This document shows, one piece after another, positions 4,935 through 8,747 of a stretch of 35,482 nt of DNA (its first letter is position 1; each line of letters begins with the position of its first letter). Source of the DNA: Candidatus Jordarchaeia archaeon (GTDB lineage: Archaea; Asgardarchaeota; Jordiarchaeia; Jordiarchaeales; Jordiarchaeaceae); NCBI GenBank assembly GCA_029856435.1, contig JAHQXB010000165.1, positions 1 to 35,482 on the forward strand, written 5' to 3'. Position numbers and translations under genes: made by a program. Under the pieces are notes generated by a model. The model saw only the letters and a program-made list of their open reading frames with translations. It ran no database searches and was not told the DNA's origin.

Positions 4935-5035
4935 GGGCACTTAGCTCAGTGGAAGATCCCGCCAAACAAGCGGTATCCAAGAGCGCCTGGTTCGCATCCA
5001 GGAGGCCGCGAGTTCAAATCTCGCAGTGTCCACCA
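4935..5035 (+). tRNA. tRNA-Ala(CGC) with one 26-nt intron at 22/23 (4956-4981)
   Basis: Acceptor GGGCACT/AGTGTCC with G3:U70 Ala determinant; anticodon arm CCTGG-TTCGCAT-CCAGG; T arm GCGAG-TTCAAAT-CTCGC; CCA encoded. Central helix TGGA/TCCA with AG|A bulges; removal gives a 75-nt cloverleaf. Confidence 0.92.
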
Positions 5036-5483: not shown

Positions 5484-5608
5484 TGGTGGACCCAGCGAGA
5501 TTTGAACTCGCGGCCTCCGCGATTTTGGGATAGCTTGCCTTCGCTCTCATACCCTTGTTAGTAGGGTATGGGTAACGCGGCGCTCATACCAGGCTGAGCT
5601 ATGGGCCC
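5484..5608 (-). tRNA. tRNA-Ala(GGC) with two introns: 33/34 (5540-5573, 34 nt) and 37/38 (5523-5535, 13 nt)
   Basis: Acceptor GGGCCCA/TGGGTCC with G3:U70; anticodon stem CCGCG/CGCGG; removing both introns gives loop TT-GGC-AT and a 78-nt tRNA with CCA. Confidence 0.85.
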
Positions 5609-5882: not shown

Positions 5883-6128
5883 TTATTCTGTTTTTATTCC
5901 AGGACTAAGGAGGATTACGTTGTCTCCTCTCACTATTACGGTTCCTACCTTTTTATTGTTGTCTTTATCTATTACTTCTTCTGCTTCATCTAAAATGAGG
6001 TTCATGTGGAGGTCGAATCCTTTGAGTTTGCCTCTAAGTTCTCGTCCTCCTTTGAGTTTAACGAGTACTCTAGCTTCGAGTGATCTGTTAAGTAGGTCAA
6101 GAGGTTTTGTTATACTTGATTCGCTCAT
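5883..6128 (-). CDS. Sm-like archaeal protein (Lsm/SmAP)
   Basis: Sm1 GKLKGFDLHMNLIL and Sm2 VIVRGDNV motifs. Confidence 0.95.
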   Translation of the reverse strand: MSESSITKPLDLLNRSLEARVLVKLKGGRELRGKLKGFDLHMNLILDEAEEVIDKDNNKKVGTVIVRGDNVILLSPGIKTE

Positions 6129-6468
6129 TACGTTTTTCTCTCCTTTAAAAAATATGTTGTGTATTTTCTGTTGGAATTAGGTTAATATTTAAGTATATCG
6201 GATTACAATCGTCATATCCAAATATGTTTCAATCTTGTTATTCGGATATTATATTCTTTTTGAGTCCAATTTTATAAACACTTGGACTAATATAATACCC
6301 ATGATAATATGCTTTTTGGGGGGGTTAATATCATTTTCCGCAACTTTGAAATATTTAGAGCTTATTATTTTAAGTAAATCATAGTATTTTAGAGAATTTC
6401 ATGTGAAAATAGTAAGTTTGTAATAAGGAGGAGAAAAAGTTTTTAATGTATATGTTGAGGCGGTATTC

Positions 6469-6985: not shown

Positions 6986-7131
6986 GCTCCGGTGGTGTAG
7001 TCCGGTCAAACAAACCAAATGGACTAAGCATAAGGGGCTCAAGAAAAATCTGCCCAATCGATCCTTTGACCCGGGTTCAAATAACTAAGCTAACCTTTAA
7101 ACTTAGTTTGAGCGTCCCGGCCGGAGCACCA
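6986..7131 (+). tRNA. tRNA-Glu(CUC) with three introns: 21/22 (7010-7027, 18 nt), 34/35 (7041-7057, 17 nt), 59/60 (7082-7114, 33 nt)
   Basis: Acceptor GCTCCGG/CCGGAGC-A-CCA. Central helices GGTC/GACT, GGGC/GCCC and TTCA/TGAG each have 3-nt bulges. The spliced product is 78 nt with loop CT-CTC-GA. Confidence 0.9.
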
Positions 7132-7397
7132 TCACCCCAAAATAACTAAACGAATCTTTTATGCTGATTCCCGCTTAGTTATCCTTCGATTTTTTAACAT
7201 TAAAAATTGACACATTGGACACAGGTGATGTAGATTAGTCCTATTCTATCCCTCATTTCAAGGCTCTAAATCAGAAAAGAAGCCCTATGAAAGCTTCCTT
7301 CGAAGGCGGAATCGAACGAATCTACACCGCGTTGGACACACATAGTAAAGATTATTAATGCTTTGAACTCTTTAGTAAAACATGGAGCCTTCGGTGA

Positions 7398-7552
7398 GCC
7401 TCGGTTCCTCTGAAATAGAGGCGAGATAGCTCAGTGGCAGAGCGGCAGCCTCGTACAATCACACATTCAAAGTGCGGTCTGAGTAAGCTGAAGGTCGCGA
7501 GTTCGATAGAGCTTGCAATTTTGCTGCTCCAAAAACCTCGCCCGGGGCTCCA
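7398..7552 (+). tRNA. tRNA-Thr(CGU) with three introns: 8/9 (7406-7427, 22 nt), 37/38 (7456-7485, 30 nt), 59/60 (7508-7535, 28 nt)
   Basis: Acceptor GCCTCGG/CCGGGGC, U73, CCA; anticodon CT-CGT-A|A. The 8/9 motif is a perfect hBHBh' (CTCG/CGAG, inner CCTCT/AGAGG). Spliced length 75 nt. Confidence 0.88.
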
Positions 7553-8628: not shown

Positions 8629-8747
8629 CGGGCACGAGGGGACTTGAACCCCTGATAAAACCGGCTATCCTCCAGGATTTTAGAGGGCATACGCCTAACT
8701 GTCGGCGCCCTTTCAGGTTTCTGAAATCCTGGCTAGGCGACGTGCCC
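8629..8747 (-). tRNA. tRNA-Arg(UCU) with three 14-nt introns: 20a/21 (8712-8725), 29/30 (8689-8702), 37/38 (8667-8680)
   Basis: Acceptor GGGCACG/CGTGCCC-G73; helices CAGG/CCTG, GCGC/GCGT, CCTC/GAGG; spliced anticodon stem CCGGC/GCCGG with loop CC-TCT-AA. Atypical C33 and 7-nt variable region; CCA not fully encoded. Confidence 0.78.

Follow-up and report, generated by a model that had tools for sequence, protein, structure and literature searches.

An intron between positions 8 and 9 of a Jordarchaeial tRNA-Thr(CGU) gene and its invariant, exon-1-like 5′ leader

The tRNA-Thr(CGU) gene of a Candidatus Jordarchaeia archaeon is interrupted by three introns, located at tRNA positions 8/9, 37/38 and 59/60. 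The first of them lies in a strict hBHBh′ motif that recruits bases from the 5′ leader, and very probably is a genuine intron spliced at 8/9, as judged from its geometry and from orthologous genes. What is new here is the leader itself: it is invariant, resembles exon 1 and pairs more strongly with the 3′ strand of the tRNA than exon 1 does, and it was previously undescribed. Taken as a whole, we consider it likely that the locus is a three-intron gene whose 8/9 intron is excised from an hBHBh′ motif before RNase P acts.

The gene was dissected by hand into four exons and three introns and occupies positions 7398-7552 of the plus strand of the window, that is, of the entire stretch of 35,482 nucleotides analysed (Table 1). 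ARAGORN called no tRNA anywhere in the unspliced window, and the Rfam tRNA model, which rises above its threshold for only two of the window's tRNA genes, gave the unspliced tRNA-Thr locus a misaligned, sub-threshold score of only 25.6 bits. After removal of the three introns, ARAGORN called a 75-nt tRNA-Thr(cgt), and its cloverleaf displays an acceptor stem of 7 bp, U73 as the discriminator and a CCA encoded in the gene. Archaeal tRNA-Thr typically carries U73 and starts with G1-C72/C2-G71/C3-G70. The invariant bases U8, A14, G18G19, U33, GUUC, A58 and C61 are all present, and a G27-A43 mismatch in the anticodon stem is the sole blemish. In its cloverleaf, invariant bases, anticodon CGU and U73, the spliced 75-mer has the features of a functional elongator tRNA-Thr. 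No second Thr(CGU) gene was found in the assembly of the window (3.54 Mb in 181 contigs), which belongs to the same genus as a complete genome of 3.58 Mb (G005).

Table 1. Features of the tRNA-Thr(CGU) locus in window coordinates
Feature	Position	Strand	Description
Promoter block, BRE/TATA-like	7341-7361 (core about 7345-7358)	+	conserved in six genus members, flanks diverge
5′ leader	7383-7397	+	TGGAGCCTTCGGTGA, 15 nt
hBHBh′ motif of intron 1	7395-7433	+	MFE fold, pair check
Exon 1	7398-7405	+	tRNA positions 1-8, GCCTCGGT; G1 = 7398; identical to positions 1-8 of the compact orthologue L025
Intron 1	7406-7427	+	22 nt, at 8/9; assigned from BHB geometry and orthologue comparison
Exon 2	7428-7455	+	positions 9-37; A9 = 7428; D arm, 5′ anticodon stem, anticodon CGU at 7452-7454
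Intron 2	7456-7485	+	30 nt, canonical 37/38; central helix CUCG/UGAG with one G-U
Exon 3	7486-7507	+	positions 38-59
Intron 3	7508-7535	+	28 nt, at 59/60 in the T loop
Exon 4	7536-7552	+	positions 60-76, including encoded CCA 7550-7552

The motif of intron 1 coincides exactly, in coordinates and in the reading of its sequence, with that proposed by a first-pass annotation of this DNA. Its outer helix (7395-7399/7429-7433) comprises five Watson-Crick pairs, in which U-3, G-2 and A-1 of the leader (7395-7397) together with G1 and C2 face A14 to G10; a pairing check confirmed the earlier statement that three of these five pairs draw on leader bases -3 to -1. The central helix (7400-7403/7422-7425) has exactly 4 bp, C3-G, U4-A, C5-G and G6-C, all of them Watson-Crick, and is bordered by two 3-nt bulges on opposite strands, GU|U (7404-7406) and AU|A (7426-7428). 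Five Watson-Crick pairs and one G-U build the inner helix (7407-7412/7416-7421, CCUCUG/UAGAGG), and the whole motif thus contains 14 Watson-Crick pairs and one G-U. The MFE fold of the motif is exactly hBHBh′ (5 bp, 3-nt bulge, 4 bp, 3-nt bulge, 6 bp) at -15.0 kcal/mol (z = -2.69; 2 of 200 shuffles were equally stable). When the intron was permuted with the exons and leader left unchanged, 161 of 200,000 shuffled introns offered all four central pairs plus an inner helix of at least three pairs at the exact register. Both flanking helices reach at least 2 bp: h has 5 bp, and h′ has 6 bp in the window and 4 bp in the orthologues of G005 and a second genome of the genus, G002. Cutting after the second bulge base on both strands yields a canonical tRNA with U8 joined to A9. 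As the first-pass annotation had also pointed out, the motif requires both the acceptor and the D stem to be unfolded.

In the mechanism that we propose, C3-G6 would pair with the CGAG of the intron as the central helix, G1 and C2 and the leader bases A-1, G-2 and U-3 would pair with G10-A14, and the intron would close on itself through CCUCUG/UAGAGG. The archaeal splicing endonuclease would then cut after the second base of each bulge, at 7405/7406 and 7427/7428, and ligation would create the predicted junction GCCUCGGU-AGCUCAG. Intron 1 would leave a precursor that still bears its leader, and RNase P cleavage would follow afterwards.

The geometry of intron 3 likewise is that of a BHB, with the T stem as outer helix and three of four central pairs formed (register set by hand). 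The tetramer CUCG or CUCA recurs at 7400-7403, 7430-7433, 7450-7453 and 7537-7540 (tRNA positions 3-6, 11-14, 32-35 and 61-64), and its partner (C/U)GAG recurs in the leader, in introns 1 and 2 and in the T stem, so that many alternative pairings exist in the precursor. Introns 1 and 2 share the exon tetramer CUCG for their central helices.

The 8/9 intron is present in all six species of the genus, with a length of 21, 22 or 26 nt. Every substitution and every length change among the six orthologues falls in one of three places, namely base 3 of bulge 1, base 2 of bulge 2 or the loop, and 13 of 14 motif pairs, including the central helix, are invariant. The covariation that the first-pass annotation had suggested looking for is absent from the six orthologues because these 13 pairs never vary, the exon partners being fixed by tRNA constraints; conservation of the pairs is nevertheless evident, and the pattern fits the BHB structure. 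In G005, the exons of the orthologue are equal in length to those of the window (8, 28, 22 and 17 nt), and the position of the match, 1545248-1545424, agrees with that published for the tRNA-Thr(CGT) gene of SRVP Freyarchaeia. An insert at 8/9 is missing from the Thr(CGU) genes recovered in two further families of the phylum, namely from L028 (f2), in the sister family of the same order, and from L025 (f12), L026 and L027. The compact gene L025 reads GCCTCGGT-AGCTCAGTGG, which is exactly the predicted junction. Together with the MFE fold and the orthologues it bears out the 8/9 placement, central helix and bulges of the first-pass annotation. Gene structure, motif and conservation are established by these data, as is, by comparison with compact orthologues, the splice junction, from which we infer that the intron is actually removed.

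Since the insert occurs in all members of the genus and is absent from the orthologues of the other families, the 8/9 intron is a gain confined to the genus among the genomes searched, as their sequences indicate. A blastn-short search of the genome revealed no paralogous copies of the three introns, or of the leader plus exon 1. A genome-wide screen for introns within tRNA positions 1-12, which started from 132,938 BHB-like candidates and required a GC-rich acceptor stem, NCCA, U8 and a T arm, returned the 8/9 intron only, at a low sensitivity: applied to positions 13-26, it picked up no more than four loci, which marks it as insensitive. The G002 orthologue (L024, G002:C490) has kept the 8/9 and T-loop introns and lacks the canonical 37/38 intron, so the presence of the latter is polymorphic within the genus.

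Three other readings of the locus were weighed against splicing at 8/9. The least probable, which we regard as remote in the extreme, takes the upstream copy at 7387-7395 (GCCTTCGGT) as the true 5′ acceptor strand and removes a longer intron, 7396-7427. This copy does pair with the 3′ strand, and UUCG at -8 to -5 can pair with the CGAG of the intron (one G-U) beside a GU|G bulge; the product, however, would have an extra U in the acceptor stem, and a check by hand found one outer pair only and no inner helix at that register. Moreover, the downstream copy is identical to exon 1 of the compact orthologues, the expected mature start is GCCUCGGUAGCUC, and tRNAscan-SE chooses the downstream copy, with 66.2 bits. 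Hardly more credible is a splice register of 7/8. In the window, where the last intron base is U, shifting both cuts by one base in the 5′ direction gives the same product, but in the five other orthologues this base is C or A and splicing at 7/8 would replace the universal U8. Cleavage after the second bulge base gives 8/9, and tRNAscan-SE also puts the intron start at nucleotide 9. Just as improbable is a decaying pseudogene with an unspliced insert, for which the sub-threshold Rfam score and the G27-A43 mismatch could be adduced; it is the sole Thr(CGU) gene found, promoter, encoded CCA and invariant tRNA bases are kept in six species, and variation is limited to unpaired intron positions, all of which argues against decay.

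The usual archaeal TATA-to-start spacing, applied to the conserved promoter block, would place the start of transcription near 7382-7384, and the 15-nt leader that follows is presumably removed by RNase P. All 15 leader positions are identical in the six species. The spacer that leads back to the promoter block is only about 50% identical between the window, G005 and G002, and the leader of the neighbouring tRNA gene (6986-7131) is variable across the same three sequences. This comparison indicates that the whole 15-nt leader is under purifying selection. The conservation of the leader upstream of -3, and its likeness to exon 1, had escaped the first-pass annotation: over 11 nt, positions -14 to -4 nearly repeat exon 1 and the two bases before it (GAGCCTTCGGT versus GAGCCT-CGGT), and their sequence is complementary to that of the 3′ acceptor strand and UCCA. 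For Thr(CGT), the duplex of leader and 3′ end amounts to -18.9 kcal/mol, compared with -13.2 kcal/mol for the true acceptor duplex. When the 20-nt leader of each of 36 G005 tRNA genes was paired with the last 14 nt of that gene, this leader was an outlier, the next best value being -9.7 and most lying between -1 and -5 kcal/mol. The helix of leader and 3′ end is predicted to be still more stable than the acceptor stem after removal of all introns, which is a serious caveat for the order of processing proposed below, as RNase P would then have to gain its substrate against this helix. It is also part of the best fold once the BHB is enforced. In this enforced fold, -14 to -4 hold the 3′ strand, -3 to +2 contribute to the outer helix and positions 3-6 to the central helix, so that all conserved leader bases are paired.

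On the basis of these folding models, we tentatively suggest, at somewhat less than even confidence, that -14 to -4 act as a decoy acceptor strand that holds the 3′ strand and UCCA. If so, exon 1 would remain available to the intron and the D-stem strand for assembly of the 8/9 BHB, and the substrate of RNase P would be withheld until the intron has been excised. The decoy would then represent a cis-encoded device that makes an acceptor-region intron spliceable and enforces the order of processing. Two Atabeyarchaeia-2 genes, one for His interrupted at 13/14 and one for Leu-GAG interrupted at 14/15, have leaders that are AT-rich and in which inspection by eye revealed no complementarity of this kind. 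As the central helices of these introns do not use the acceptor strand (hand analysis), their leaders are consistent with the decoy idea, although they do not put it to the test. The literature, when searched for a link between leader-trailer pairing and the splicing endonuclease, yielded nothing relevant.

In the folding models, precursors with no leader or a 3-nt leader form the acceptor stem with a probability of 0.93-1.0 in three of four orthologues and of 0.08-0.44 in G005, and the central helix of the BHB has a probability of at most 0.02 in all four. AT-rich random leaders preserve the acceptor stem (median probability 0.93-0.96 in three of four orthologues), and the native leader brings its probability to 0.00 in all four; the predicted abolition of the acceptor stem by the native leader thus is robust. 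Folds of the growing transcript are dominated by the complete BHB over most lengths before the 3′ strand is made. The stronger claim that the native leader switches the precursor into the BHB was not robust and we reject it: full-length folds that include the native leader give the central helix probabilities from 0.01 to 0.90, depending on the orthologue (0.90, 0.01, 0.23 and 0.58), and composition-preserving shuffles of the leader often do as well, reaching at least 0.5 in 82, 0, 44 and 31 of 100 cases, respectively.

The first-pass annotation had argued that splicing probably precedes RNase P cleavage. Since the motif excludes the acceptor and D stems and needs leader bases, and since the leader is under purifying selection, splicing most likely takes place on the leader-bearing precursor. 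The invariance of the leader in six species and the leaderless folds, which favour the acceptor stem, speak for the proposed order, which remains inferential, and the models on balance incline us to place splicing before 5′ trimming by RNase P. The principal competing view, which we rate as rather unlikely, accepts the intron as real and leaves the order unfixed: RNase P might trim first and EndA might cut a relaxed motif with a 2-bp outer helix, or HBh′, the leader being conserved for another reason, as an initiator region, for protection of the 3′ end or as a chance relic. Broad-specificity EndA enzymes accept relaxed motifs. After trimming, G1-C11 and C2-G10 remain as a 2-bp outer helix, and with such an enzyme RNase P may, as far as the geometry goes, act first. 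In full-length folds, furthermore, the outer helix has a probability of merely 0.03, and the genome encodes two EndA paralogues, which suggests the two-subunit type of broad specificity (bioRxiv 10.64898/2026.10.13.758758, section 2.6). Against an unfixed order stand the identity of all 15 leader positions, with the adjacent spacer at about 50% and the neighbouring tRNA leader variable, and the prediction that a leaderless precursor locks exon 1 in the acceptor stem in three of four orthologues (probability 0.93-0.98; 0.08 in G005) with hardly any central helix left.

With respect to the enzymes, a profile search of the genome identified two ORFs with an EndA domain (PF01974; 108 and 80 bits), consistent with an (αβ)2 enzyme; they lie on G000 contigs C104 (near 1475-1723) and C64 (near 6070-6330). 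An archaeal RNase P RNA is encoded at G000:C33:9536-9922 (172.7 bits). Its match spans 387 nt compared with the 288 positions of the model, and this RNA may carry one or more insertions.

The tRNA-Thr gene belongs to a cluster of five tRNA genes in the window between 4935 and 8747, at 4935-5032 (+), 5487-5608 (-), 6986-7131 (+), 7398-7552 (+) and 8629-8747 (-). The neighbour at 6986-7131 (GCTCCGGTGGTGTAGTCCGG ... CCGGAGCACCA) resembles a tRNA-Glu. Supplementary Data 4 of PMC11291895 gives the orthologue of this neighbour in G005 (1545739-1545581) as Met(CAT), a label that probably is mistaken and arose from an intron within the anticodon. The Rfam tRNA model has only nine matches with E < 0.01 in the whole 3.54-Mb genome, which implies that most tRNA genes are too interrupted to be detected. 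All 36 tRNA genes fetched from G005 (L038-L073) end in NCCA, and the 3′ CCA is thus genomically encoded throughout. A 982-residue protein encoded 1.9 kb downstream shows about 95% identity with proteins from MAGs of Candidatus Jordarchaeia and Freyarchaeota, and the genome itself is a MAG of the Freyarchaeia/Jordiarchaeia (Asgard).

No tRNA introns are more difficult to square with the folding of the tRNA than those within or beside the acceptor stem, given that splicing motif and acceptor stem are mutually exclusive and that RNase P, the CCA-adding enzyme and aminoacyl-tRNA synthetases need the acceptor stem. With one gene, six orthologues and a 15-nt leader, the locus provides a compact natural test case that can address the order of splicing and trimming in an archaeon and the selection of flanks that steer the folding of a pre-tRNA. 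It also bears on the question of where introns persist in Asgard lineages and how they arrive, because the intron gained here has a near-duplicate of exon 1 right next to it.

The 8/9 position, which the first-pass annotation had taken to be novel, is by itself no discovery: the catalogue search that it had asked for finds the orthologous intron in a published table, and on the annotation's own terms this removes the novelty of the position. In Valentin-Alvarado et al. (2024, Nat Commun, PMC11291895), Supplementary Data 4 lists, under 'SRVP_Freyarchaeota_curated_circular', tRNA #32 as Thr CGT at 1545409-1545248, with three tRNAscan-SE introns, the first of which begins at nucleotide 9, and an Infernal score of 66.2. 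This gene of G005 agrees with that of the window in genus, in the four exon lengths, in the introns at 8/9, 37/38 and 59/60, in the leader and in the BHB; it differs in an intron 1 of 26 nt with another loop, compared with 22 nt in the window. The main text of that paper, as searched, contains no discussion of the 8/9 position or of the leader. Among the 37 Freyarchaeia and 43 Atabeyarchaeia-2 entries of the same table, the 8/9 intron is the most 5′ one, no other starting before nucleotide 14. Reviews that name 3/4 and many other positions do not name 8/9 in their text, and the phrase 'positions 8 and 9' was encountered in modification papers only. The gene belongs to the same families as those covered by a census according to which the tRNA genes of Jordiarchaeia and Atabeyarchaeia are heavily interrupted, with about 2.2 intervening sequences per gene and preferentially canonical BHB boundaries (bioRxiv 10.64898/2026.10.13.758758); leaders, RNase P and processing order do not occur in that census. 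The 8/9 intron therefore is a rare representative of the non-canonical BHB introns that had been catalogued before, and its lineage is known to harbour introns of this class.

An even more extreme case is the intron at 3/4 in Thermoproteales (Sugahara 2008, as cited in Yoshihisa 2014, PMC4090602), and tRNAscan-SE 2.0 adds 60-nt flanks to find introns near gene ends (PMC8450103), so BHBs that reach into flanking sequence are of a known kind. The 3/4 and 8/9 introns are both of the protein-spliced kind, defined by a transplantable BHB in or beside the 5′ acceptor strand that has to draw on upstream sequence; the intron of the window differs in its Asgard lineage and its position, and for the 3/4 intron no account of a conserved, exon-like leader was found. 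In Caldiarchaeum, too, a newly acquired intron occurs together with an incomplete tRNA-Thr copy, a 5′ fragment of tRNA-Thr(GGU) (Sugahara 2012, PMC3293823). That fragment is at least 1.8 kb away and comes from a mobile element, whereas the copy in the window is 11 nt long, directly adjacent, transcribed and conserved. In the split and permuted tRNAs of Nanoarchaeum, Caldivirga, Thermofilum and Cyanidioschyzon, leader and trailer build the BHB and splicing must precede end maturation (reviews including PMC4090602). The leader of the window gene likewise helps to build a BHB; unlike in those systems, the gene is contiguous and colinear, and the contribution of its leader is limited to the outer helix and, possibly, a decoy strand.
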